Assembly: GCA_016176525.1 (NCBI GenBank) | Contig: JACOWZ010000003.1 | Location: 128,001-192,000, forward strand | Direction of reading: 5' to 3' | From: Candidatus Colwellbacteria bacterium | GTDB lineage: Bacteria; Patescibacteriota; Minisyncoccia; UBA6257; Colwellbacteraceae | DNA: 64,000 nucleotides | Shown: piece by piece, positions 4,683-46,616 of the stretch | How positions within the stretch are numbered: the stretch's first letter is position 1 | How the letters are laid out: each line of letters opens with the position of its first letter | Made by a program: the position numbers and the translations under genes | Notes under the pieces: model-generated | What the model was told of the DNA's origin: nothing | Databases searched by the model: none | The model's input: the letters and a program-made list of their open reading frames with translations, nothing else

Positions 4683-6746
4683 CTAAACGTCTGTCTGCCG
4701 CCGTATTTTTTTGATAATATCTTTAGTAATTTGGTCTCTAGCTTTAGTTCGCTCTTCTGTGATTTTTTGCGCTGCCTTTTTACGCTCTGCTTTAAATATC
4801 TTTTCTTTCTCGGCTCTAAGTTTCGCTTGATCGCGCACTTCATCTTCAGCAAGTATTGCCCGCGTTTTTGTGCGTTCTACACGAAGAGCCGCAGACGCCT
4901 TTGCGCGTTCTTTTGCAACCGCAGATGCAACACGGATTTTCGCCGCATGCACTGCCTCATGCGCCCTCTCGCGTACACTCCTTAAAAGTTTTTCTGTTTT
5001 TCGTGCGCGTGCGAGTGCAGCCTTTGCTCTTTCTTTCTCTGCTTTAATTTCGCCTTCGGCCTTGCTCTTTACAGCTTTTAGGCGCGCTTCTTCTAACTTC
5101 TTGTGAGCAGCTATACGCTTTGCTTTTTGATTCTTTAGGCGGGTTAATTCCAGTTTAACTTTTGCGAGCTCTTTTAAGATATCTCTTTCTTTCTTTTTCT
5201 CTTCCATTAAAGCGAATTTGGTTGCTTTATTTACTCCGCTTAGTTTGATTTTTTTCTTTAGCGCAGCAATTTTTGTCTTGGCTCTCTCTTTTTGGCTTGC
5301 AATCAACTTTGACTCTTTCTCTAGCGTTTTAATCGCCTCCCTCGCGCGCTCGCGCGCATCTCTAATCGCGGCTTTTGCTTTATGCCTTGCCTCTGCAATA
5401 CTTTTTTGCTTTTCTTTGGTTTTTTCCGCGAGAAGTTTTTTAACCCTTTCATGCTCTTTTGCAAGCGCAAGTTCCGCCTCTTCTTTCTCTTTCTCTGCCT
5501 GCTCGGCAGCTTTTTTAGCTTCAATAAGCGAAGAGTCGCGCAGGTCGCGCTCAACATGCGTAGATTCGGCAAGTTTTTCTTCTGCAGAAAGCGCTGCCGC
5601 TTCCGCTTTTCTCTTCTCTTCAAATATTGCCTCTTCTGCATCTTTCTTTAGTTTTGCAAGCGTCTCTTCTGCGCGCCTTCTTTCGTCTGCGAGCGCGGTT
5701 TCTGCGCGTTCGCGTTCAATTGCAAGCTTTTCTTCAGCTACCTTTTTCTCAACAAGCGCCGCCTCTGCCATTTGCTTTGCACGCTCTGCCTCCTCTGCTT
5801 TCTTTTTAGCCTCCACTAGGGCCTTGCGAGCTTTTTCTATCTCTGCAGCCGCGGCTTTGGATTTTTTCTTCTCGCGTAAAAGCGCTTCTTGAAGTTTAAC
5901 CTTTTCCCCAAGCACTTCTTCGGTCGAAGTTGCCTTTACCGCTTTCTCCTCTGCGCGCTTTTTCTCAATGGCAATAGAAGCAGTAGTTCTTTTTCTCTCT
6001 TCAACAAGCGCCGCTTCAGCCCGTCTGCGCTCTTCTTTAAGGGCTTCTTCTGCGCGCTTATGCTCTTTTTCAAGCGCTTCTTCTTTGCGCTTAGCTTCTT
6101 CTTCTATTTTTTTGTGTTCTACTTCTCTCTCTGCTTCTGCTCTCTCGCGCTCTTTTGCTGAAGCCTCGGCCGCCCTTGCCCTCTCGGCTTCATGTGCTGC
6201 TTCTCTCTTTCTTCTCTCTTCTGCAAGCGCCTTTGCTGCATGCTTTCGCTCTGCATCAAGTGCTTCGCGAGCTTGGGCCTTTTCTTTTTCGTGCGCAGCT
6301 TCTTCCTCTTTATGGCGTTTTACCTCTAGCGCAGTTTTCGCATCTTCAATATCGGCAGTAGTTGGCAGCTGCACCCCGGCGCGCTCCATTATTTCACTAG
6401 CTTTCTCTACAACTTCTTTCAACGGATGGCTAGCTTTAACAAAATAATCCACAGCGCCCAACCGCAAGGCGCGTTTAATATCTTCATCGTTGCCGAGGTT
6501 TGAGAGCATTATTACATCGGCTTTCTTAAGCTCGTTGTCTCTTTTTAGTTCTTGTAAAACTTCAAAACCGTCTTTTATCGGCAACAGAATATCCAGCAAT
6601 ATAACATCTGGCAAAAAACGCCTTGCAATATCTACAGCCTCGCCGCCATTTTGCGCAATTTCAGCCTCAAAACCACTTGTTATAAATTTATCGCGTAAAG
6701 CTTCGGCGAGCGCAACCTCATCTTCTACAATAAGAACTTTCGCCAT
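4683..6746 (-). CDS. Response-regulator receiver domain fused to a ~550-aa highly charged E/K/R/A-rich helical (coiled-coil or single alpha-helix) region
   Basis: N-terminal 125 aa is a CheY-like receiver (VEDE...LLDILLP). The rest is low-complexity AEEKR repeats. Long + strand S/A/F-rich ORFs are mirror-image artifacts. Confidence 0.75.
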   Translation of the reverse strand: MAKVLIVEDEVALAEALRDKFITSGFEAEIAQNGGEAVDIARRFLPDVILLDILLPIKDGFEVLQELKRDNELKKADVIMLSNLGNDEDIKRALRLGAVDYFVKASHPLKEVVEKASEIMERAGVQLPTTADIEDAKTALEVKRHKEEEAAHEKEKAQAREALDAERKHAAKALAEERRKREAAHEAERARAAEASAKERERAEAEREVEHKKIEEEAKRKEEALEKEHKRAEEALKEERRRAEAALVEERKRTTASIAIEKKRAEEKAVKATSTEEVLGEKVKLQEALLREKKKSKAAAAEIEKARKALVEAKKKAEEAERAKQMAEAALVEKKVAEEKLAIERERAETALADERRRAEETLAKLKKDAEEAIFEEKRKAEAAALSAEEKLAESTHVERDLRDSSLIEAKKAAEQAEKEKEEAELALAKEHERVKKLLAEKTKEKQKSIAEARHKAKAAIRDARERAREAIKTLEKESKLIASQKERAKTKIAALKKKIKLSGVNKATKFALMEEKKKERDILKELAKVKLELTRLKNQKAKRIAAHKKLEEARLKAVKSKAEGEIKAEKERAKAALARARKTEKLLRSVRERAHEAVHAAKIRVASAVAKERAKASAALRVERTKTRAILAEDEVRDQAKLRAEKEKIFKAERKKAAQKITEERTKARDQITKDIIKKIRRQTDV

Positions 6747-15545: not shown

Positions 15546-16151
15546 ATGGCTCTCGTGCAGATGGATTTTACTAATGAGGAGCTTGTGCCTCTCATTATTA
15601 AAAAACTCCAGCGCGAGAAGAAGCAACAGTTCGCAACCCGTAAAAGCAGACGAAGCGGCGCGCAACTCGTAGACATCCGGGATATTCTGGTGTCGGCAGA
15701 AACTCTCGCCGAAGGCCTGAAAAACGCCGGCTACGAGCTAACAGACGCGCACTACGAACCCCGGCAAGACCAGCGCAACCAAAACCGAACCTACCACATG
15801 GTGCGGTTCTGGTTTACGAGGAGTGAGCATGCAAAACCCTCCACAGACTTTCTGTCTGTGCGAGAGGGTGTGCTCTCCGAACTTGAGCGAATGCTTACAA
15901 CCAACTTCTGGAAGCAGTTGCGGGTATACCGCAACCCCTTCTACAGTCCGGAAACGGGCGAAGAAGTTGAAGAAGCGCGCACAATGTCGGTGAACCTCGG
16001 CGTGCCGGAACGGATCTTCGATGAAAAGAACGTCCGCCGCGAAGTATGGGTTCGGGACCAAAACGGGCTAAAAACCCACAAAACCGCGATCTCCCACGAT
16101 CTTAGCATCTACGCGGACAAAACCGCGATACATGCTGTAGGTCCGAGCTAG
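15546..16151 (+). CDS. Hypothetical protein (201 aa), GC-rich foreign-looking codon usage
   Basis: Long ORF with own promoter and terminator. No recognizable motif. Confidence 0.5.
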   Translation: MALVQMDFTNEELVPLIIKKLQREKKQQFATRKSRRSGAQLVDIRDILVSAETLAEGLKNAGYELTDAHYEPRQDQRNQNRTYHMVRFWFTRSEHAKPSTDFLSVREGVLSELERMLTTNFWKQLRVYRNPFYSPETGEEVEEARTMSVNLGVPERIFDEKNVRREVWVRDQNGLKTHKTAISHDLSIYADKTAIHAVGPS

Positions 16152-16170
16152 CGGTATCTCTCCCCAACTA

Positions 16171-16208
16171 GGGGCACAAAGGCAATCGCCAATGTGCCCC
16201 ATTTTTTT
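16171..16208 (+). terminator. Intrinsic terminator GGGGCACA..TGTGCCCC then ATTTTTTTATCC
   Basis: 8-bp GC stem plus T7. Confidence 0.65.
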
Positions 16209-16224
16209 ATCCACATATGGTGAC

Positions 16225-16253
16225 TTGACATAGAACAAGCTTTATGCTAACAT
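16225..16253 (+). promoter_or_regulatory. Promoter: TTGACA, 17-nt spacer, TAACAT
   Basis: Seen in sequence; conserved module. Confidence 0.5.
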
Positions 16254-16348
16254 TAGAAGCAGAGTTGGAAGAGGGTCTTCCAACTAACAGTACCTAGACA
16301 AAAGAAAAAGAGACCGGTAAAGCCGGAAAAATGAAGGAGAGAAGGGAA

Positions 16349-17089
16349 ATGCAAAAACTGCAAAACGGAATAACCGTAAAGAACGACGACCAGCGAACGA
16401 AGGAAGCTCTGGAGCGGGCGGAAGCAAAGAAGGCGAGCGTGATGCCGTGCATCACGGTACGCCTTGCGAAGAGTTCCGCAAGGCTTCTCGATGAGCTCAA
16501 GGAGAAGGGCATCAAACTGATCCCCGACCTTGAAAGCGACGGGCATGTGCTCGCTGCGTTCAAGGATGGAGAGAAAGTTCCCCTCGTCCTGGAGAGCGCG
16601 GTTGCAACCGGAGGAGCTCGCCCCACGATCCTTGAGTTCATGGGGCCGAAAGAACTCCGAAGCACCTACACTCGCTTCGCCGTGTCGCAGAGGGACTTCA
16701 GGGAGAAGACCTTTGCTCCGACCAAGCGCACGCGCTACAACAACTCCGCTGGTGAAGACGAGGTGCGGTGCATGTCGGAAGGACATGGCAAGGTTCAGGC
16801 GCCAGCGAAAACCGAGCTTGTCGTGTCCGAGGTCAACACCGATGGAGGGTGTATCATCACGGAGTACACCTTCACCGTCTCCACGAAGGACGGCGCGGTC
16901 AGCATCACGGCTCGCAAACTCGCCCAGTTCCAGATGGTTCCCCGAGAACTTCTGGGTCTGAAGCCTGCCATGGACCACGCATACGACGAAGCAACGCGTG
17001 ACGTGGAATTCTGGCAAGAGCGAGACAGGCAGAACAGGATCGGCCGGAACGGGAGCAACCACTTCCGCAACGGCCACCAGCACCGCTAA
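16349..17089 (+). CDS. Hypothetical protein (~246 aa), strongly GC3-biased (foreign) codon usage; start moved to the Met preceded by AAGGAGA
   Basis: Third-codon positions mostly G/C in contrast to native genes such as recA. The antisense 302-aa ORF 16253-17161 is a GC artifact. Confidence 0.55.
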   Translation: MQKLQNGITVKNDDQRTKEALERAEAKKASVMPCITVRLAKSSARLLDELKEKGIKLIPDLESDGHVLAAFKDGEKVPLVLESAVATGGARPTILEFMGPKELRSTYTRFAVSQRDFREKTFAPTKRTRYNNSAGEDEVRCMSEGHGKVQAPAKTELVVSEVNTDGGCIITEYTFTVSTKDGAVSITARKLAQFQMVPRELLGLKPAMDHAYDEATRDVEFWQERDRQNRIGRNGSNHFRNGHQHR

Positions 17090-17120
17090 GACCTTCGAAC
17101 TCTCTACCCACTCTTTTCCC

Positions 17121-17155
17121 GCCCAAACAGATTCGTCTGTTTGGGCACTTTTTTT
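17121..17155 (+). terminator. Intrinsic terminator GCCCAAACAG..CTGTTTGGGC then ACTTTTTTTATCC
   Basis: 10-bp stem plus T7. Confidence 0.7.
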
Positions 17156-17173
17156 ATCCAAATATTATATATA

Positions 17174-17202
17174 TTGACAATATAATATATTTATGCTAAA
17201 AA
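17174..17202 (+). promoter_or_regulatory. Promoter: TTGACA, 17-nt spacer, TAAAAA
   Basis: Same architecture as 16225. Confidence 0.5.
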
Positions 17203-17239
17203 ATAAGCAGTACTCCAAAAGATAGGGAGTCTGTTGTAG

Positions 17240-17881
17240 ATGAATGGAATGGAACTCGTGAGAACACTGCCGGTTTTAAAGCCGGTTGGAGTGCAGTTCC
17301 AAAAAGACACACTTGGGCAAGAAGAACTGCACCAAAACCTAAGGCATCTAGAAGATGCCGGTGTACCAGATACCGCCGTTAAAGTTGCCGAAACCAAAAA
17401 AGGCAGAGCTATAAGAGTTACGCTCTTAAACGGCATAGATGCACATGGATTGCAGAAAGACAATTCGTGGAAGCTGGGCGTAATCTTAGAGCTAGTGAGA
17501 AGCAAAGACCCGGACGAAAATTACGGAATCGGCCTTGCAGCCGTATACAGGATTCCGTTTGAGTATATCCAGGCACTTTGTTTACACCACAACGGAACCC
17601 GCAAATGGATAGCGCAGCTTAAGCGCAGCAACGCTTATGTTGTGCGAGCAAAAAAAGACGGCACATTAAACTTCTTCCACATTGATGCAAACTTTCCAGA
17701 TGGAAAGGTAAACGCTTTTTTGGAAGAAGACGAAGAACGCAGCCGAACTGATTATGCAGAAAGGCCACAACTCTTTACTGCTTTCGGCTTCGCTTTTCAG
17801 AACATGCAAACGAGACTGCCGGAACAATGGCAGCAATTTAGCCGCAACGGGCAGGCAAAAAGCTCTAGTGAAATTCACTAG
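17240..17881 (+). CDS. Hypothetical protein (213 aa), native-like codon usage
   Basis: ORF with promoter. No motif recognized. Confidence 0.5.
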   Translation: MNGMELVRTLPVLKPVGVQFQKDTLGQEELHQNLRHLEDAGVPDTAVKVAETKKGRAIRVTLLNGIDAHGLQKDNSWKLGVILELVRSKDPDENYGIGLAAVYRIPFEYIQALCLHHNGTRKWIAQLKRSNAYVVRAKKDGTLNFFHIDANFPDGKVNAFLEEDEERSRTDYAERPQLFTAFGFAFQNMQTRLPEQWQQFSRNGQAKSSSEIH

Positions 17882-17927: not shown

Positions 17928-18527
17928 TTATAGACTAGATTGTTTATCTGCGATTCTCTTTTTAAGATCCGCTATTCTCAACTCCCTGGTGATCATATTT
18001 TTATTGAACTCCTTCAACTTGCTATTTTTCATAGAAATTTCCTTATAAACAGTCTCTAAAGATAAGGTTTCTGTGACTAATTCTTTTTCTATTTTCTTAA
18101 CGCCATCAACTTGCCTAGAAAGCTCTTTGTTTATTTCTCTGAGTTTTGTAGGACTAATTAGTTTTAACATAGAAGGAACGGCAACCGCATATGCGACAAA
18201 TGATGCAAAAGATATAAGACCCGTGCCGAGATCAATCGTACCGGCGAGATAATACGCCGGATAAAAAAATACTAAGGCGTTAATAAAATGGCTGGTGCTG
18301 CACCAAACCCCAAAGACGGTAATAACCAAAAAGACCCATCTAAAAGAGAAATCCTTCCTTTTGATATAGATATAAAAAAGCTCGGCTGGAATAACAAGAT
18401 AAGTGATGCCGATTAAAATATTGGCAATTATAAGCGTCCACATCAGCCCGATATTATTTGGAATAAAATGCGCACTGTGAGGCTCGAACCCGCCGGAGTT
18501 TAATATTAGATTAATAAAATCAAGCAT
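17928..18527 (-). CDS. Ethylene-binding-domain (ETR1 N-terminal)-like membrane sensor with C-terminal coiled coil; no kinase domain
   Basis: IPAELFYIYIKRK...FRWVFLVITVFGVWCSTSHFINAL aligns with ETR1 IPLELIYFVKK...[23 protein letters not shown]. C-x3-H copper ligands conserved. Confidence 0.65.
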   Translation of the reverse strand: MLDFINLILNSGGFEPHSAHFIPNNIGLMWTLIIANILIGITYLVIPAELFYIYIKRKDFSFRWVFLVITVFGVWCSTSHFINALVFFYPAYYLAGTIDLGTGLISFASFVAYAVAVPSMLKLISPTKLREINKELSRQVDGVKKIEKELVTETLSLETVYKEISMKNSKLKEFNKNMITRELRIADLKKRIADKQSSL

Positions 18528-19116
18528 GTTTGTTGTCTATATCAACCAATTGGGCTTCTAATTCTTTGACGGCGCTATCGCGATTCGCCATGATTCTATT
18601 AAAATTTTCCAATTCCTCGTTTTTCAATATCAAATTCTCGCTGGCTTTTTTGAGCTCTTCTTTCTTTACCGCAAGTTCTCCTAATTTAGACTCTCGACTT
18701 TTAATTTCATCAGAGAGAGATTTGTTGGCTTGCTGCATTTGTTCCGGGCTTACCAAACTAACAATGATAGGCAAGAAGTAAAGCATAGCTACCGCGGTCG
18801 CGGCCGAAACCAAAAAAGTTACGACGCTGATTATCGCCTGCAGATAATATGCCGGATACCAGAAGATAAGAACATGCATTAAATGGGTAAGGCCGCATAA
18901 GAAGATAAAAGCCCCGAAAAGCAAAACCATCCAGTTCAGATACAAATCCCTTCTTTTTCTAACGAAATATATGATTACAACCGGGATTAAGAGATAAGCC
19001 AAGAAACTGAAGGCATTCCCATACACCGACAGATCCATTGCAATCGGAGTATCAAAAAAGTGTGCTCTATGAGGTTCAAAAACAGAACCATCAAAAATTA
19101 ATTTAAGAAAGTCCAT
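18520..19116 (-). CDS. Ethylene-binding-domain-like membrane sensor, paralog 2. Start moved to the Met matching the paralog's N-terminus; the track's start at 19173 is GTG.
   Basis: IPVVIIYFVRKRR...NWMVLLFGAFIFLCGLTHLMHVL; Cys/His spacing as in ETR1. Extended -10 TGgTATAAT upstream. Confidence 0.65.
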   Translation of the reverse strand: MDFLKLIFDGSVFEPHRAHFFDTPIAMDLSVYGNAFSFLAYLLIPVVIIYFVRKRRDLYLNWMVLLFGAFIFLCGLTHLMHVLIFWYPAYYLQAIISVVTFLVSAATAVAMLYFLPIIVSLVSPEQMQQANKSLSDEIKSRESKLGELAVKKEELKKASENLILKNEELENFNRIMANRDSAVKELEAQLVDIDNKHA

Positions 19117-19278
19117 AGTAGAATACACAAAAAAATTATACCACGCGCTATTTAATAACAATCTAAAAAACACAACAGAAATCCGGTTTTGAATAATTTC
19201 CTATTCACCCCGACGCTACGTCGGGGCAAGCGGGAAACTCCCGTTTCCCGATCCCTTCCCAGTTCGATTCCCTATAAA

Positions 19279-19312
19279 TATAGAAACTTCACAATTATGT
19301 GAAGTTTCTATA
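19279..19312. terminator. Strong palindromic hairpin (13-14-bp perfect stem) downstream of tRNA-Glu
   Basis: TAGAAACTTCACA att ATGTGAAGTTTCTA. Confidence 0.6.
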
Positions 19313-19318
19313 TTTCAG

Positions 19319-19390
19319 TAGTCCCAAGGGGAATCGAACCCCTATTTGCGCCGTGAAAGGGCGCTGTCCTAGCCGTTAGACGATGAGACC
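19319..19390 (-). tRNA. tRNA-Glu (anticodon UUC)
   Basis: Hand fold: anticodon stem GCGCC/GGCGC, loop CTTTCAC, T-loop TTCGATT. Confidence 0.65.
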
Positions 19391-19440
19391 TTACGCATTG
19401 AATCGTATATAAAAATATTTTGTTTGTCTATTATAAAAAT

Positions 19441-20094
19441 AATAGCCGGGTAGGATGCGCGCAAAGCTCTCCTCCCGGCTTTTGTGATAGGGATGCACTC
19501 ATCTTGCGGTTGCAAGACCCTCATAGTTCGCCCAAGATTCTATCGGAGCATGTACACGTTGCCGATTACTCTGTCATCTCCGAAGAGACGACGGTGGTAG
19601 CTCTTGGTTTTTATTTTTGAGGTGTCCAGCGTGTTGTGCTGGATTTAAGGCCCTGTGATTCCGGCTCGGATTAATCCTGTTGCTACTCCCTTCGGATTTA
19701 CAACAAGATTCACACCAAGCATTTGCCCTTGCTCCGCTGCTGACGGATGGGCCGCCTTTATCTTGATCTGCGATTGGGTAATTCTGCTAGCATGCTTCCT
19801 TTTACCCTATTTCGCACGTCGCTTCCAAAGCTGCTTCAAGGTTTAACCCGGAGGGTTGCTCCTTGGAGCCGCATAGCGTGGCGCTTTTAGCTTTAGCCTT
19901 TCGGCTTTGGCTTTTGGGCGTTGTTGCGCTATGGGTAGCGGCGCTTAATCAAGATTCAGCCAGGTTCGGACCTTAGACCTATCGGTCGGGTTCTTGCCTG
20001 GGTTCCCGTTCTTCTAAGTATTTTTTAGGTACTTAGGAAACGGGTTAGGCTACGGATGTCACTGTGATGTTAGGTGCTTTCGCTCTCTATCGGT
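19441..20094 (-). ncRNA. Putative large structured noncoding RNA (~650 nt), identity unknown
   Basis: No ORF >66 aa on either strand. Minus-strand promoter (TTGACA-16-TAATAT) at 20102-20121. Hairpin plus U-run terminator at 19454-19492 read on the minus strand. Several GNRA (GCGAAAGC, GCCGAAAGGC) and UUCG (UCUCUUCGGAGA) tetraloop hairpins. Confidence 0.3.
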
Positions 20095-20101
20095 ACTCAC
20101 T

Positions 20102-20121
20102 ATATTACTCTCGCTAAAAAA
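20102..20121 (-). promoter_or_regulatory. Near-consensus promoter on the minus strand driving the ORF-free region
   Basis: The reverse complement reads TTGACAgcttttttagcgagagTAATAT. Confidence 0.5.
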
Positions 20122-20267
20122 GCTGTCAATACCCCCAAAATCGCGAAAAATAGGGCTTTTTACCCTATAAAATGAATAACTTGTTTAGAACCCTGTGGAA
20201 AATTTGTGGAAAAATCGGCACTTTTTGGCTTTGCTTTCCATGAGAATCCAATTAACATATAGCTACT

Positions 20268-21296
20268 ATGCGGATTTTAGCAATAGAAACATCTTGCGAC
20301 GAGAGTGCAATAGCGTTGGTTGAGGCGACTGGAACTCTAATCAGGAATCCCCGCTTCAACGTGCTCGCTAACCTAATATCGTCTCAAGTAAAAGTACATC
20401 GCCCATTCGGCGGCGTAGTGCCAAACTTAGCAAAAAGAGAACATATTAAAAATTTGCCTCTGCTTCTACAGCAACTAGAAACTAAAAACTTAAAACTAGA
20501 AACCATTGACTTAATCGTAGTCACTGTAGGCCCTGGGCTTGAACCGGCGCTTTGGACAGGAATAAACTTTGCCGAAGATTTAGCTAAGAAACTAGAGAAA
20601 TCCATCTTGGGAGTAAATCACCTAGAAGGACACCTCTACAGCTTTTTATTGGAGCAAAAAGCTGGCTTACAGTTTCCGGCAATGGTGTTGTCTGTAAGTG
20701 GAGGACACACTATGTTAATTCATTTGGAAAAGCTCGGGCAAGCTAAAAAAATAGGCGAAACGCGCGACGACGCCGCAGGCGAGGCGTTTGATAAAGTTGC
20801 CCGCCTTCTTGGTTTGCCCTACCCCGGCGGGCCGGAGATTGAAAAATTAGCTAAAAAAGGCGACGAAAACGCAATAGATTTTCCGCGCCCGATGATACAC
20901 CAAAAGAACTTTGACTTTAGCTTCTCCGGCATAAAAACATCTGTTCTTTATTATATTAGAGACTTAAAACTGAAAACTTTAAACTTAAAACAAAAGGCGG
21001 ATATAGCCGCGAGCTTTCAGAAAGCGGTTTCAGAAACGCTTGTTGCAAAAACAATACGCGCTGCAGAAGAATTTGGAGTAAAATCAATTGCCCTTGTGGG
21101 AGGCGTTTCGGCAAATAAATATTTAACTAAAAAAATGGAAAAGGCAGCCAAGAATATTGGACTCGCATTTACCTCGCCACAGCTCCAATTCAATACCGAC
21201 AACGCCGCAATGATAGCCGCAGCGGCCTACATTAATACTTTAAAAAAGAAAAAAATAAAAAATAAAATTGAGGCAAATTCTAATTTAAATTTGTAA
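20268..21296 (+). CDS. tsaD: tRNA N6-adenosine threonylcarbamoyltransferase TsaD (Kae1/YgjD family)
   Basis: ETSCDE..., GVNHLEGH, VSGGHT motifs. Confidence 0.85.
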   Translation: MRILAIETSCDESAIALVEATGTLIRNPRFNVLANLISSQVKVHRPFGGVVPNLAKREHIKNLPLLLQQLETKNLKLETIDLIVVTVGPGLEPALWTGINFAEDLAKKLEKSILGVNHLEGHLYSFLLEQKAGLQFPAMVLSVSGGHTMLIHLEKLGQAKKIGETRDDAAGEAFDKVARLLGLPYPGGPEIEKLAKKGDENAIDFPRPMIHQKNFDFSFSGIKTSVLYYIRDLKLKTLNLKQKADIAASFQKAVSETLVAKTIRAAEEFGVKSIALVGGVSANKYLTKKMEKAAKNIGLAFTSPQLQFNTDNAAMIAAAAYINTLKKKKIKNKIEANSNLNL

Positions 21297-42337: not shown

Positions 42338-42688
42338 AGTAATTATTTATAACAGATCAAAGTCGCTCGGGCAATATATCTTAAACTCACCAAACCCACA
42401 GTATCTCGCGGCACCGCGATAAATCTGCTCCAGCGGCAGATTTTCGCTTCTACTCGGCCAGTGGTCTCCGTAGGACCTTACGGCCTATATAACGGAGTAC
42501 CAAGCTCCACTGGCCTCCGTAAATGCCGCTCGACACAATGGGTTTGGTTCGTGGAAAGTTAATGAAGCCGCCCAGCTATGCTCGTAAAGTCATCTTCGGA
42601 GCGCGACGGCGCGAGAAAAAGGCGAAAATTCAGTAAGAATTTTATGCCGGTGACTTGTAGAGTATGGGTGGGTGGCGAATAAATATAT

Positions 42689-43165
42689 CTAGACGTGCCT
42701 GTCGGCAACTGAAGTTGCTGCGTAGCTTTCTGGTTTTGTGCGCACTTCGTAATTTAGCGAACGGATCATGCCGGTAAGCTCTTGAATCATAGCGCGAGTT
42801 TCACCGTGCTCGCCAATATCTACGTGTATCTCAAAGCTAAAATTAGGAGGGTCTAGTTCTTTTATCGCAGCTAAGGTTTCTTTTGCAACATCAAGCGACA
42901 TTATAACTTCTTTTATTATTCTGTCGCGCAAAGTATGAAAATTTTTTAACTCTGTTCTCCGCCAAAAATAACGCGCCCCGTTGCCAACGCGGTGCACAAC
43001 AATAGCGGTTATAAAATCCGCTTTGCTTTTTTCATATAAAGCGGAGTCTGTGCCGATGGTAACGCGGTACTCGCGGTTTTTGTCTTCGGACATAAAATCA
43101 ACTGTGGCTTTAGCCACGGCGCTTATATCAAACTTCATTCCATATGGGCCGTTAAAACTAGACAT
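42689..43165 (-). CDS. Hypothetical protein (158 aa), possible RNase H-like fold
   Basis: ORF. VTIGTDSA and HVDIGEHGE acidic motifs. Weak assignment. Confidence 0.35.
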   Translation of the reverse strand: MSSFNGPYGMKFDISAVAKATVDFMSEDKNREYRVTIGTDSALYEKSKADFITAIVVHRVGNGARYFWRRTELKNFHTLRDRIIKEVIMSLDVAKETLAAIKELDPPNFSFEIHVDIGEHGETRAMIQELTGMIRSLNYEVRTKPESYAATSVADRHV

Positions 43166-43179
43166 AACTTAAAATTACT

Positions 43180-44103
43180 CTATTTAAACCGCTTTATCAA
43201 GATAATTAGATTTTTCCTAAGTGCAGAGAGTGTTTTTTTGTCTTTAGCCTCGGCGGTAATCCTTATTACAGACTCGGTTTTAGACAAACGAACGTTAAAC
43301 CAATACCCCGGCTCACGTACAGTAATCCCATCCGCCGTTGAAACTTTTTTCCCGCTTCGGCGAAAGTGTTCTATAAGCTTTTTTACAACTACCCCCCTGT
43401 CTTTTGCATTAACTTCACCCCTAAACCTAAAATAGAGTGTTCTAAACTTATTAGCCCACTTTGCGGGCGTTAGACCCCTCTTTTTTATTTCAGAAAAAGC
43501 GTTAATTACAAAAACGGCGGAAAGTATTCCAGAATTTAGATAGATATATTTAGGCTTGCCGCGCAATCTAGGGCACTTTAAATGGAAGTAATAGTGGCCG
43601 GATCTCTCGGATCCATAGGAGGCCCCGCGGGCACGCATTACTCCCACAATATAATAAGGCCCTGGTTTGGAGGCGAATACTTTAATGTCTTTACTAAAAG
43701 CCTTACGCACAACATCGCTAGTGGAGGTGTCTATTACAACCTTTTTTGGTTTTAAATAATTTATAAGAAGGCGGCTTATTATGTCTTGGTCTATAAGCCT
43801 GCCTAAATTATCAACAAAAAGCGCCCTATCGCCATCTCCATCGAAGATGACGCCCAAATCAGCTTTTTGTTTTAAAACTGTTTTTTTAAGCTGTGTTGTA
43901 GAGCCATGGTCCAGAGGGTTGGGGCCGTGTGCCGGAAACCGCCCATCCGGCTTGTCATTTAAAAACTTTAATTCCAGCGCTCTGTGCTTAAAAGCGCCTT
44001 TTGCAAACTCCCCCGTGCTGCCGTTTGAATTGTCTACCACAACCTTAAGCGGTTCCGAAACATCCAAAAAACTGTTTAAAAATTCCGCGTAAACAGATTT
44101 CAT
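43180..44103 (-). CDS. Phosphomannomutase/phosphoglucomutase domains II-IV (second half of a split or frameshifted gene)
   Basis: FDGDGDR Mg loop, GSERSGH sugar-binding loop. Starts with an ATGA overlap on the upstream ORF. Confidence 0.7.
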   Translation of the reverse strand: MKSVYAEFLNSFLDVSEPLKVVVDNSNGSTGEFAKGAFKHRALELKFLNDKPDGRFPAHGPNPLDHGSTTQLKKTVLKQKADLGVIFDGDGDRALFVDNLGRLIDQDIISRLLINYLKPKKVVIDTSTSDVVRKAFSKDIKVFASKPGPYYIVGVMRARGASYGSERSGHYYFHLKCPRLRGKPKYIYLNSGILSAVFVINAFSEIKKRGLTPAKWANKFRTLYFRFRGEVNAKDRGVVVKKLIEHFRRSGKKVSTADGITVREPGYWFNVRLSKTESVIRITAEAKDKKTLSALRKNLIILIKRFK

Positions 44104-44519
44104 TTTAATTGATGCAATGCCTTCAATATTTGCTTGCCGCTTATTGGGTTATTGTCGGCACCCACTACTTTAATGCCGTTGTAATCTTTAGGGCTGTGTG
44201 ATGCAGTTATTGCAACACCTAAATCCGCTCCAAAATAATTGGCTAAGAAATACATCATAGGTGTGGTTATTAAACCTGCAGATATTATGCGTACACGCTT
44301 GCCAAGGGTATGCTCTAAACCCTTTATAAACGAGTGGTAAAGCGCAGGCGAGCTAACCCGAGCATCGTGCCCTACTAAAATAAACGGGCGCGCAGAACCA
44401 GCGATTTTTTTGGCTAAAACTTCTGCAACTAAATGAGCAGTTTTTACATTTAACTCATCTGGGTAGCGGCCGCGGATGTCATAAGCCCTAAATATTGACT
44501 CGTCTATTTGCAAATTCAT
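44100..44519 (-). CDS. Phosphomannomutase/phosphoglucomutase domain I (first half); start moved to internal Met MNLQIDE
   Basis: FRAYDIRG and the TASHSPKDYNGIK active-site serine loop. Confidence 0.7.
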   Translation of the reverse strand: MNLQIDESIFRAYDIRGRYPDELNVKTAHLVAEVLAKKIAGSARPFILVGHDARVSSPALYHSFIKGLEHTLGKRVRIISAGLITTPMMYFLANYFGADLGVAITASHSPKDYNGIKVVGADNNPISGKQILKALHQLK

Positions 44520-44540
44520 GTGATAAGATATTACAAGATA

Positions 44541-46616
44541 ATGACAAAAAAACGAAAATCTAAAAACTCGAATTCGGCGCTTCACCCCGAAACTAAGGCG
44601 AGTATCACCGCCCTTACGCTCACATCAACCGCCATAATACTAATGCTCTCGGCGCTTGGTTGGGCCGGGTCTGTGGGCAAAGTAATATTCGAGATACTTT
44701 ATAAATTTTTTGGTGTTGGATATTACCTACTGCCCTTGGTTTTGGCGGGCGTAAGTTTGGGCCTTGTTTCGGGCAGAAAACAAAAAAGAGTGGGTGTTGC
44801 CGCAATAGGAGGAGGAATATTTCTTATAGCAGCATTGGGAATAATCGAAGTAATAAACCCAGATGGCGGAGGCTTAATTGGAAAAATATTAGGAAGCCTA
44901 AAATTTGTGTTTGGCGCACCGGCAACTGTGGTCTTAGGCGTTACTACGCTAATAATTTCAATTTTAATTGGTTTAAACACATCTCTAAAAATACACCTTA
45001 CAAAAAAGAGGGGTGATTATGCCGAAGAAGAAAAACTAAAAATAACCGGTGCAACGGAAGAATCAGAAGAAGAACAAGAAGATGAGGATAAAAGAAAACC
45101 TGAAGAAGACGAAGAACCCGAGGAAGAAGATGAAAAAGATAAAGAAATAGAAATTAAGATTACCGAAGGACAAAAGAATATGCGCATGCAAGCCGTAGCG
45201 CCTGTAAATTGGGAAAACTATGTTCCCCCGCCGGCCAATCTTTTGCACTCTGCCGTAGAAAAACCAACTGTGGGCGACCTAAGAGCGAATGCAAATATAA
45301 TAAAACGCACACTAGAGGGCTTTGGTATACCGGTTGAAATGGGAGAAATAACAATCGGACCTAAAGTTACCCGCTACACTCTAAAACCGGCAGAGGGTGT
45401 AAAGCTCTCCAAAATAACGGCCTTGAACCAAGATTTGTCCTTAGCTGTAGCGGCCCACCCGATACGCATTGAGGCCCCAATACCCGGAAAGTCCTTGGTA
45501 GGCATTGAGATACCAAACAAAACCGCAAGCTTGGTAAGACTTGGCAGTCTTATAACATATGCAGATTTTGTAAAAGCCCCGAACCTTACATTTGCGCTTG
45601 GCAGGGATGTCGCCGGCGAAGCGGTGCTTGCGAACCTTGCTAAAATGCCGCACCTGCTTATCGCCGGCACAACCGGAAGCGGCAAATCAATAATGATTCA
45701 CAGCCTTTTGATATCTCTAATATACAAAAATTCTCCAGAGACTATGCGGATGTTATTAATTGACCCGAAGCGAGTTGAGCTTTCTATCTACGAAGGAATC
45801 CCGCACTTAATGACGCCTGTTATAACAGAGGGTAAAAAAGTTGTGTCAATCTTGCGGTTTGCAATAGAAGAAATGGAAAGAAGGTACAACACGTTGCTTG
45901 CCGCAGGCAAAAGAGATATAGCTTCTTACAACAGCGGGCGCAAAAACGACATAATGCCATATATTGTAATAGTGGTAGACGAACTTGCAGATTTGATGAT
46001 GTCTTACGGCCGCGAGATAGAAAACTCTATAATACGCCTTGCGCAGATGGCCCGCGCTACCGGCATTCACTTAGTGCTTTCTACCCAGCGGCCCTCGGTT
46101 GAAGTTATAACAGGGCTTATAAAAGCAAACATTACCTCGCGCATAGCCTTGCAAGTTGCCTCGCAAGTTGACTCGCGAACCATATTAGACATGGCCGGGG
46201 CCGAAAAACTTTTGGGCGGCGGAGATTTACTTTTTGTATCATCGGATCTTGGAAAACCTAAAAGGATACAGGGGGCCTATGTTTCTAACGAAGAACTTAA
46301 GAAAGTGGTAGATTTTATAAAAAACAAAAATACATTTGATTCTACCGGTGAACTAGAAACAAAAATACAAGAAAGCTTAGAAAATAAAAATATGAATCTA
46401 GGTGGGGTGGAAGGTGAAGATGAACTCTACGACGAGGCAGTGCAGGTTGTACGCGAATCTAAAAAAGCTTCTGCGTCGCTTCTGCAAAGGCGCTTAAAAG
46501 TAGGATATGCAAGAGCCGCCAGGCTTCTAGACCTTATGGAAGAAGCGGGTATAATAGGCCCGGGAGAGGGCGCAAAACCAAGAGAAGTTTTTCTAAGCGA
46601 AGAAAATGAATCCTAA
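44541..46616 (+). CDS. ftsK: DNA translocase FtsK/SpoIIIE (TM N-terminus, acidic linker, motor, gamma winged helix)
   Basis: LLIAGTTGSGKS Walker A. C-terminal gamma domain. Start moved to the second Met. Confidence 0.85.
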   Translation: MTKKRKSKNSNSALHPETKASITALTLTSTAIILMLSALGWAGSVGKVIFEILYKFFGVGYYLLPLVLAGVSLGLVSGRKQKRVGVAAIGGGIFLIAALGIIEVINPDGGGLIGKILGSLKFVFGAPATVVLGVTTLIISILIGLNTSLKIHLTKKRGDYAEEEKLKITGATEESEEEQEDEDKRKPEEDEEPEEEDEKDKEIEIKITEGQKNMRMQAVAPVNWENYVPPPANLLHSAVEKPTVGDLRANANIIKRTLEGFGIPVEMGEITIGPKVTRYTLKPAEGVKLSKITALNQDLSLAVAAHPIRIEAPIPGKSLVGIEIPNKTASLVRLGSLITYADFVKAPNLTFALGRDVAGEAVLANLAKMPHLLIAGTTGSGKSIMIHSLLISLIYKNSPETMRMLLIDPKRVELSIYEGIPHLMTPVITEGKKVVSILRFAIEEMERRYNTLLAAGKRDIASYNSGRKNDIMPYIVIVVDELADLMMSYGREIENSIIRLAQMARATGIHLVLSTQRPSVEVITGLIKANITSRIALQVASQVDSRTILDMAGAEKLLGGGDLLFVSSDLGKPKRIQGAYVSNEELKKVVDFIKNKNTFDSTGELETKIQESLENKNMNLGGVEGEDELYDEAVQVVRESKKASASLLQRRLKVGYARAARLLDLMEEAGIIGPGEGAKPREVFLSEENES

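Follow-up and report, generated by a model that had tools for sequence, protein, structure and literature searches.

The window analysed here, a stretch of 64,000 nucleotides (nt) from the genome of a Candidatus Colwellbacteria bacterium, contains between the genes for tRNA-Glu and TsaD a G+C-rich block that we read, with about even confidence, as an independently transcribed and highly structured non-coding RNA (ncRNA) that takes up about 650 nt of the minus strand, lies outside all described families and, to judge from public data, occurs in its lineage only. The host is a groundwater bacterium with a tiny genome and a member of the Patescibacteria (the Candidate Phyla Radiation, or CPR; Parcubacteria/Paceibacteria-like). 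The block is non-coding, has a composition of its own and carries promoter and terminator motifs, and the multi-domain fold of its transcript is predicted. A preliminary description of this DNA had proposed a large structured ncRNA of unknown class, a proposal that agrees with the promoter, the terminator, the composition, the size and the predicted fold alike; what it described is nevertheless a plausible candidate and not a demonstrated RNA class, because no collection searched yielded a homologue in which conservation and covariation could be seen. As a candidate for a new large ncRNA the block is genuine and has clear limits, yet it is an orphan.

The space between tRNA-Glu and tsaD (20268-21296 on the plus strand, identified by Pfam scan) is an 877-nt gap (19391-20267) without a credible open reading frame (ORF). 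On a simple gene map it is the largest non-coding gap of the window, the runners-up measuring 404 and 351 nt; about 91% of the window is coding, and the genome comprises 645 kb. As the genomes of Patescibacteria (CPR) are extremely reduced, 650 nt of promoter-driven non-coding sequence would be costly, which suggests a function. Within the gap, composition, ORF scan and fold delimit a candidate ncRNA body of about 650 nt (19444-20094, minus strand) that is ORF-free and A-rich. The G+C content of the block is 49-53% and that of the flanks 33-43%; AT skew on the plus strand drops to -0.39, so that the minus strand is strongly A-rich. An independent assembly from Logan contains the identical candidate sequence. 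The longest ORFs of the gap are, as first described, 66 and 63 amino acids in length, and both are on the plus strand; the minus strand from 19525 to 20100 (575 nt) has no ORF of at least 30 amino acids. Stop codons number 7-18 per frame in all six frames, and the period-3 spectral signal is 1.86, compared with 3.6-9.0 in seven neighbouring genes. A search of the six frames against Pfam gave no match at E<=1, none of seven ORFs from the region was present among 15 billion predicted proteins, and the 63-amino-acid ORF, which is spurious, had no phmmer match among 1.84 billion representative proteins. No paralogue or internal duplication of the candidate was found within the window.

Entering the block on the minus strand is a sigma-70-like promoter, TTGACA-16-TAATAT (20102-20129), that matches the consensus at 10 of 12 positions and has a perfect -35 box; transcription from it would start near 20094. 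The preliminary description had recognised this promoter but had placed it at 20102-20121, whereas its true span is 20129-20102. The window has five perfect TTGACA sites, each of them in a non-coding gap or at a gene boundary; promoter matches of at least 10 of 12 positions number about 20 in 128 kb (both strands) and are not rare in the genome. At the far end of the block, folding and pair probabilities reveal an intrinsic-terminator-like hairpin (19480-19444, minus strand) whose 11 pairs are interrupted by one bulge (-22.7 kcal/mol, z -4.3, pair probability 0.99-1.00), followed by a U-rich tract (19443-19432; AUUAUUUUUAU). This hairpin, which a simple terminator scan missed because its loop exceeds 8 nt, is the putative terminator noted earlier, a real hairpin 53 nt before tRNA-Glu but displaced by about 10 nt from the position originally assigned to it. 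The gene for tRNA-Glu(UUC) (19318-19390; Rfam and ARAGORN) follows directly downstream on the same strand, preceded by a promoter-like site of its own, TAGACA-17-TACGAT (19402-19430), with a AAUAGACA motif that is common to the nearest relative, L082, and followed by its own terminator, a perfect 18-bp hairpin found by hairpin folding (19274-19315). With a promoter-like site and a terminator belonging to tRNA-Glu itself beyond the 19480-19444 hairpin, the simplest reading is that the block is transcribed separately, as a unit of about 650 nt that would run on the minus strand from about 20094 to about 19440; the hairpin and U tract (19480-19432) would end the transcript 53 nt ahead of tRNA-Glu, and the tRNA would be transcribed separately. 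The promoter scan also gave an internal promoter-like site, TCGGCA-17-TAGAAT, at 19565-19537 on the minus strand.

When folded over 655 nt, the minus-strand unit has a minimum free energy of -229.8 kcal/mol (z -5.5), with a pair probability above 0.9 in most of its predicted helices and single hairpins at z -3.9 to -7.05 relative to shuffles. Long-range helices are predicted, in RNA numbering with 1 at window position 20100, at 10-14/611-615, 39-48/438-446 and 146-154/333-341 (pair probability 0.8-0.98). The transcript would thus fold into a closed, multi-domain structure in which a 5'-3' helix is combined with long-range helices nested in one another and with some ten stable hairpins, of which two carry GAAA and cUUCGg loops. 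In the predicted closing helix the 5' strand (20081-20091) pairs with the 3' strand (19486-19497), at a probability of 0.81 for GAUAG/CUAUC and 0.65 for GCG/UGC. From 5' to 3' it would enclose a 40-nt hairpin of two stacked 7-bp stems (20005-20044; probability 0.95-0.98, -14.0 kcal/mol, z -3.9); a central domain (19760-19955), whose 9-bp long-range closing helix (19947-19955/19760-19768) has a probability of 0.98 and whose interior is poorly defined (0.25-0.55), with the GAAA-capped hairpin inside it (19889-19912, -7.8 kcal/mol); an extended 57-nt hairpin that is the strongest of the unit (19664-19720; -26.5 kcal/mol, z -7.05, probability 0.96-0.99); and a 3' domain (19501-19622) with the 8-bp cUUCGg hairpin (19573-19592) and a 7-bp hairpin (19501-19518). 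The region had been called rich in tetraloops, and two robust tetraloop hairpins do occur (GCC-GAAA-GGC with a 4-bp stem, and the 8-bp cUUCGg), but the richness was overstated: of the others put forward, GCGAAAGC has a stem of 2 bp only, and the loop of AUCCGAAGGGA is GAAG, which is neither GNRA nor UUCG. Both canonical tetraloops are on the promoter-read minus strand, and the plus strand shows no enrichment.

Searches for known RNA families did not assign the candidate to any of them. At the gathering threshold, Rfam 15 yielded only tRNAs in the whole window, and at E<=10 positions 19441-20100 gave only chance-level matches of 10-16 bits (STnc310, IMES-2, DUF805b and mir-2518), in a scan that shows no matches below roughly 10-25 bits. 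The one true match in the vicinity is the adjoining tRNA-Glu. Matches of the candidate to ROOL, GOLLD, OLE, HEARO, raiA and the other Rfam 15 families were absent, including at E<=10. The Rfam/Infernal scan that the preliminary description had suggested therefore leaves the candidate without a family, and the failure by eye to place it as RNase P RNA, transfer-messenger RNA (tmRNA), signal recognition particle RNA or 5S RNA holds, as neither Rfam nor ARAGORN gave a match to any of these. A tmRNA was considered separately and rejected, ARAGORN finding none in the window and Rfam giving no match.

The genomic slot was compared among 84 tsaD loci of relatives, including 80 GTDB loci and the three closest by protein search. 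The TsaD encoded beside the candidate is a 100% match to protein MBI2013371.1 from a metagenome-assembled genome, and its next-closest relatives have 71%, 67% and 65% identity. In most of the Patescibacteria loci examined (e.g. L001-L025 and L082) tRNA-Glu(UUC) adjoins tsaD, in either orientation, and the space between the two genes is empty or holds unrelated genes, which makes the slot a variable hotspot; Rfam found only tRNAs in the relatives' tsaD loci. In L082 (TsaD identity 71%), positions 5570-5852 hold a unit of about 250 nt that is free of ORFs (z -3.2), together with a promoter-like site ahead of it and a strong intrinsic terminator behind it; the tRNA promoter with the AAUAGACA motif and then tRNA-Glu come next, a layout that matches the candidate locus. 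The block formed by unit and tRNA is inverted relative to tsaD between L082 and the candidate genome. The layout that the two genomes share upstream of tRNA-Glu is suggestive. Because related genomes fill the slot with unrelated DNA, the candidate RNA is likely to be accessory, fast-evolving or acquired, not a universal housekeeping RNA. As an observation apart from this, GIY-YIG-like ORFs flank tRNA-Glu in L008 and L009.

Several results weigh against reading the block as a structured ncRNA. No homologue was found in the 84 tsaD loci with nhmmer, blastn or Smith-Waterman alignment, and a single-sequence covariance model of the 3' domain (R2) recovered only itself when run against 48 Patescibacteria loci. 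A 21-mer scan of Joint Genome Institute (JGI) metagenomes gave one chance match, inside an ORF; three 19-mer scans of IMG/VR and blastn searches of phages (50,697 records) and plasmids gave none, and the protein search with the 63-amino-acid ORF among 1.84 billion proteins brought no relative. The comparative alignment with relatives that had been proposed as a check thus came to nothing, as no collection searched held an alignable homologue, and the candidate, homologue-less in all of them, is without support from conservation or covariation. The L082 unit is 400 nt shorter than the candidate and defies alignment with it, which points to weak constraint or an independent origin. As regards the fold, the plus strand folds equally well (z -6.4); when an RNA is A-rich, its U-rich antisense often has a comparable folding z. 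In a background control in which 300-nt windows were folded across the 64 kb (mean z -0.67, sd 1.6), z fell below -4 in 4% of windows, and the four 300-nt minus-strand windows of the candidate gave -7.1 (19441-19740), -3.3, -0.06 and -2.9, the middle of the unit (-0.06) being unremarkable. The fold signal of the candidate is real but uneven, and other windows of the genome are comparable; because 4% of the 300-nt windows reach z < -4, thermodynamics alone is suggestive and not decisive. The enrichment of tetraloops relative to dinucleotide shuffles is marginal (P of about 0.06 for stems of at least 4 bp and about 0.03 for 3-bp stems), and in 1.5 kb three 10/12 promoter matches were found where 2.3 are expected.

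The main rival of the ncRNA reading is that the block is non-functional spacer, the remnant in a variable slot of DNA that was acquired horizontally or rearranged; it would perhaps be accidentally transcribed, and its G+C content and stems would reflect its origin. Such a remnant would agree with the variability of the slot, where relatives have nothing or unrelated genes, with the failure to find a homologue in any collection searched, with the unalignable equivalent unit of the nearest relative, with the equally good folding of both strands, and with the heavy-tailed background distribution of z. We nonetheless consider it unlikely, given a 645-kb genome whose window is about 91% coding and has no other gap near 877 nt, a perfect -35 box at one end and a strong terminator at the other that bracket exactly the G+C-rich block, a residual coding signal that is nil (Pfam in six frames, period-3), and canonical stable tetraloops that are confined to the promoter strand. 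As the candidate points the same way as tRNA-Glu and stops 53 nt short of the tRNA, it might also be a structured leader or processed precursor that is co-transcribed with the tRNA by read-through; alternatively, it could comprise two to three separate small RNAs, and the internal promoter-like site (19565-19537), the uneven structure signal over the four 300-nt windows (-7.1, -3.3, -0.06 and -2.9) and the shorter unit of 250 nt at the same position in L082 are in keeping with these readings. Both variants are improbable, as a strong hairpin and U tract stand between the candidate and the tRNA, tRNA-Glu has its own promoter-like site with a AAUAGACA motif conserved in L082, and long-range helices predicted at a probability of 0.8-0.98 join the 5' and 3' parts. 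That a protein-coding gene has decayed here was a further concern of the preliminary description. Some relatives carry a gene of 190-280 amino acids between tRNA-Glu and tsaD, and 650 nt would be about the size of such a gene. These genes are mutually unrelated, however, tblastn gave no match inside the unit of about 650 nt and only tRNA-Glu in the surrounding 1 kb, and the relatives hold no intact homologous gene; with no Pfam match, 7-18 stops per frame, no codon periodicity and a 63-amino-acid ORF that phmmer could not match, a pseudogene has a very slim chance of being the correct explanation. The chance that a mobile or defence system has its guide RNA or guide-RNA array encoded here (a stem-loop TIGR array, omega RNA, bridge RNA or retron) is close to negligible. 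There is a precedent in that TIGR-Tas systems occur in CPR bacteria, where some arrays are series of variable stem-loops (PMC12045711), and the slot is variable and adjoins a tRNA; yet the candidate has no tandem units, Pfam finds no Nop, RuvC/HNH, TnpB/IscB, IS110 or reverse-transcriptase domain in the seven neighbours, the four unannotated neighbours have no NCBIfam, PHROGs or PADLOC match, and the positional counterpart of a 212-amino-acid neighbour is present in L084, where the RNA is absent.

A highly divergent CPR-type RNase P RNA (rnpB), with long insertions masking it from Rfam, called for formal testing because CPR RNase P RNAs are divergent and resemblances to Escherichia coli M1 RNA can be picked out by eye. 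Lui et al. (2021) reported that 10 of 35 circular CPR genomes have RNase P RNAs that are missed at Rfam thresholds and whose helices are extended or missing (PMC8172020), so there is a precedent in the CPR. The resemblances to M1 are short and collinear: AAGGUCCGA is like conserved region I (CR-I), AGGAUUAAU like CR-IV and ACAGGGCCUUA like CR-V, and GGAGCAAGGGCAAAU is identical to M1 243-257 at 14 of 15 positions. In addition, the predicted long-range helix 39-48/438-446 is at the expected place of P2, and Rfam detects no other RNase P RNA in the window. Against this, Rfam gave no RNase P match at the gathering threshold or at E<=10, a 361-nt slice included. The M1 reference sequence was verified at 100% identity, and a reference set of 43 unique type-A RNase P RNAs was drawn from host segments of IMG/VR contigs; an nhmmer profile of these 43 RNAs and M1 had no match to the region at E<=1000. 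For the 3' catalytic domain, a covariance model (R1; 128 positions, searched with filters off) scored less than 1 bit at the expected site, its best score of 8.6 bits falling at a wrong and structurally implausible place. In an ordered-block chain test, in which 34 conserved sub-blocks were placed in order with gaps free, the candidate scored 122.8 as against 114.1+-7.6 for dinucleotide shuffles (P=0.13), and 6% of other genomic windows scored as high; the Smith-Waterman score against M1 was under the shuffle mean. The 14/15 match (GGAGCAAGGNCAAAU) is a common chance 15-mer, with more than 100 chance occurrences in IMG/VR, where only 3 of 120 matches to it were real RNase P RNAs, and canonical CR-I (GAGGAAAGUCC) and CR-V (ACAGAANNCGGCUUA) are absent from the region in regular-expression searches with 1-2 mismatches. 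The best P4 by eye (AAGG[U]CC with GGCCUU) has only 2 pairs beyond the bulge, the GGAGC is without a properly placed P5 partner and P8/P9 have no room, so that no consistent P4/P5/P7-P11 threading is obtained, and about 200 nt are left over after the putative 3' strand of P4. The candidate and the CPR forms of RNase P RNA are alike in being structured RNAs of CPR genomes missed by Rfam thresholds, with a P2/P3-like arrangement in the candidate, but the candidate is about 250-300 nt too long, has a 3' extension of 200 nt and is missing the canonical CR-I and CR-V. With Rfam, M1 alignment, nhmmer profile, covariance model and block-chain test all negative, RNase P RNA was rejected; it is very improbable, a small residual probability being kept because low-scoring Rfam matches are not displayed and the genome was scanned over the 64-kb window. 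As a by-product of this work, 'viral' contigs of IMG/VR (e.g. L240) were seen to carry 52 host type-A RNase P RNA genes with CR-I and CR-V, 43 of them unique; host DNA is present in IMG/VR, and its ordinary host RNase P genes are a handy reference source.

Large structured RNAs of unknown function are rare, and OLE, GOLLD, ROOL and raiA have repeatedly proved to be unexpected architectures, RNA-only nanocages among them. To our knowledge, almost nothing has been learned about the ncRNAs of the Patescibacteria (CPR) besides divergent RNase P and rRNA insertions. If the block does specify a structured ncRNA, its closest known analogues in lifestyle would be ROOL and GOLLD, large 'ornate' RNAs of bacteria and phages whose function is unknown and which form RNA-only nanocages (PMC12286853). 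Like these, the candidate is several hundred nt in length, ORF-free, predicted to be highly structured, probably accessory and located beside a tRNA gene. In every membership feature that could be tested it nevertheless departs from them: Rfam gives no match of the candidate to either family even at E<=10; ROOL and GOLLD occur in phages and prophages and in tRNA islands, whereas the candidate has housekeeping and membrane-protein neighbours, a single tRNA and no PHROG match among the four unannotated ORFs nearby; and theirs are families of hundreds of members, whereas the candidate has no homologue. OLE RNA (about 610 nt, from extremophilic Firmicutes) is comparable in length, in being a stand-alone structured RNA and in having a defined promoter and terminator, but it belongs to another phylum, Rfam gives no match to it, and no oapA-like partner gene is near the candidate. 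The approach of the Breaker laboratory nominates structured ncRNAs from the G+C-rich intergenic regions (GC-IGR) of AT-rich genomes (PMC8632094). The candidate bears the GC-IGR signature, being a long intergenic sequence with a G+C content well over that of its flanks, but the call of a motif by that approach needs homologues and covariation, and the candidate has neither.

We propose, tentatively and at somewhat less than even confidence, that the candidate may be the founding member of a new class of Patescibacteria RNAs that are large (about 650 nt), accessory, fast-evolving and linked to tRNA-Glu, similar to ROOL and GOLLD in lifestyle but with a sequence and structure unrelated to theirs, its place being the chromosome of an ultra-small episymbiont and not a phage. 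The candidate RNA would presumably act in trans as a folded molecule (a scaffold, a ribonucleoprotein or an RNA-only particle) and not as an mRNA, antisense regulator or leader. Were the candidate real, it would offer a tractable in vitro target (transcription, probing and cryo-electron microscopy) from an uncultivated lineage and a seed for the discovery of fast-evolving tRNA-linked RNAs. Should the candidate not be real, the locus would illustrate that acquired spacer DNA can yield strong promoter, terminator and fold signals.

The neighbours of the candidate are tsaD, a class I tRNA synthetase gene and genes for membrane proteins, and a Pfam search of seven neighbouring proteins found only TsaD, class I tRNA-synthetase and ETR1_N domains; four unannotated ORFs nearby had no match in NCBIfam, PHROGs or PADLOC. 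The ETR1_N domain, an ethylene-receptor-like membrane domain that is unusual in the CPR, is encoded by a tandem pair of genes at 17928-19173 (E 1e-26 and 3e-20). Between the start of the ETR1_N-domain gene and the tRNA-Glu terminator are two G+C-rich hairpins (19205-19245; CCCCGACGCUACGUCGGGG and GCGGGAAACUCCCG), and at about 19258-19268 a short repeat of the tRNA T-loop sequence (GTTCGATTCCC) occurs on the opposite strand. Positions 15546-17881 hold three ORFs of 201-302 amino acids that gave no match in Pfam, NCBIfam, PHROGs or PADLOC (the Pfam scan covering those other than the 201-amino-acid ORF); codon periodicity is clear in the two tested (302 and 213 amino acids), and 300-nt windows of this region have unusually negative folding z values of -5 to -6.7. 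At 44104-44507 the gene map has 404 nt without an ORF of at least 70 amino acids, overlapped by a GTG-initiated ORF of 161 amino acids (44100-44585, minus strand), so that the gene call there is uncertain. Lastly, an ORF-free spacer of 353 nt between two minus-strand genes (42338-42690, minus strand; 48% G+C) gave no Rfam match even at E<=10; it folds at -129.7 kcal/mol (z -6.35, 100 shuffles) into a structure in which a long rod-like hairpin predominates, possible identities being a 6S-like RNA and a structured 5' leader.

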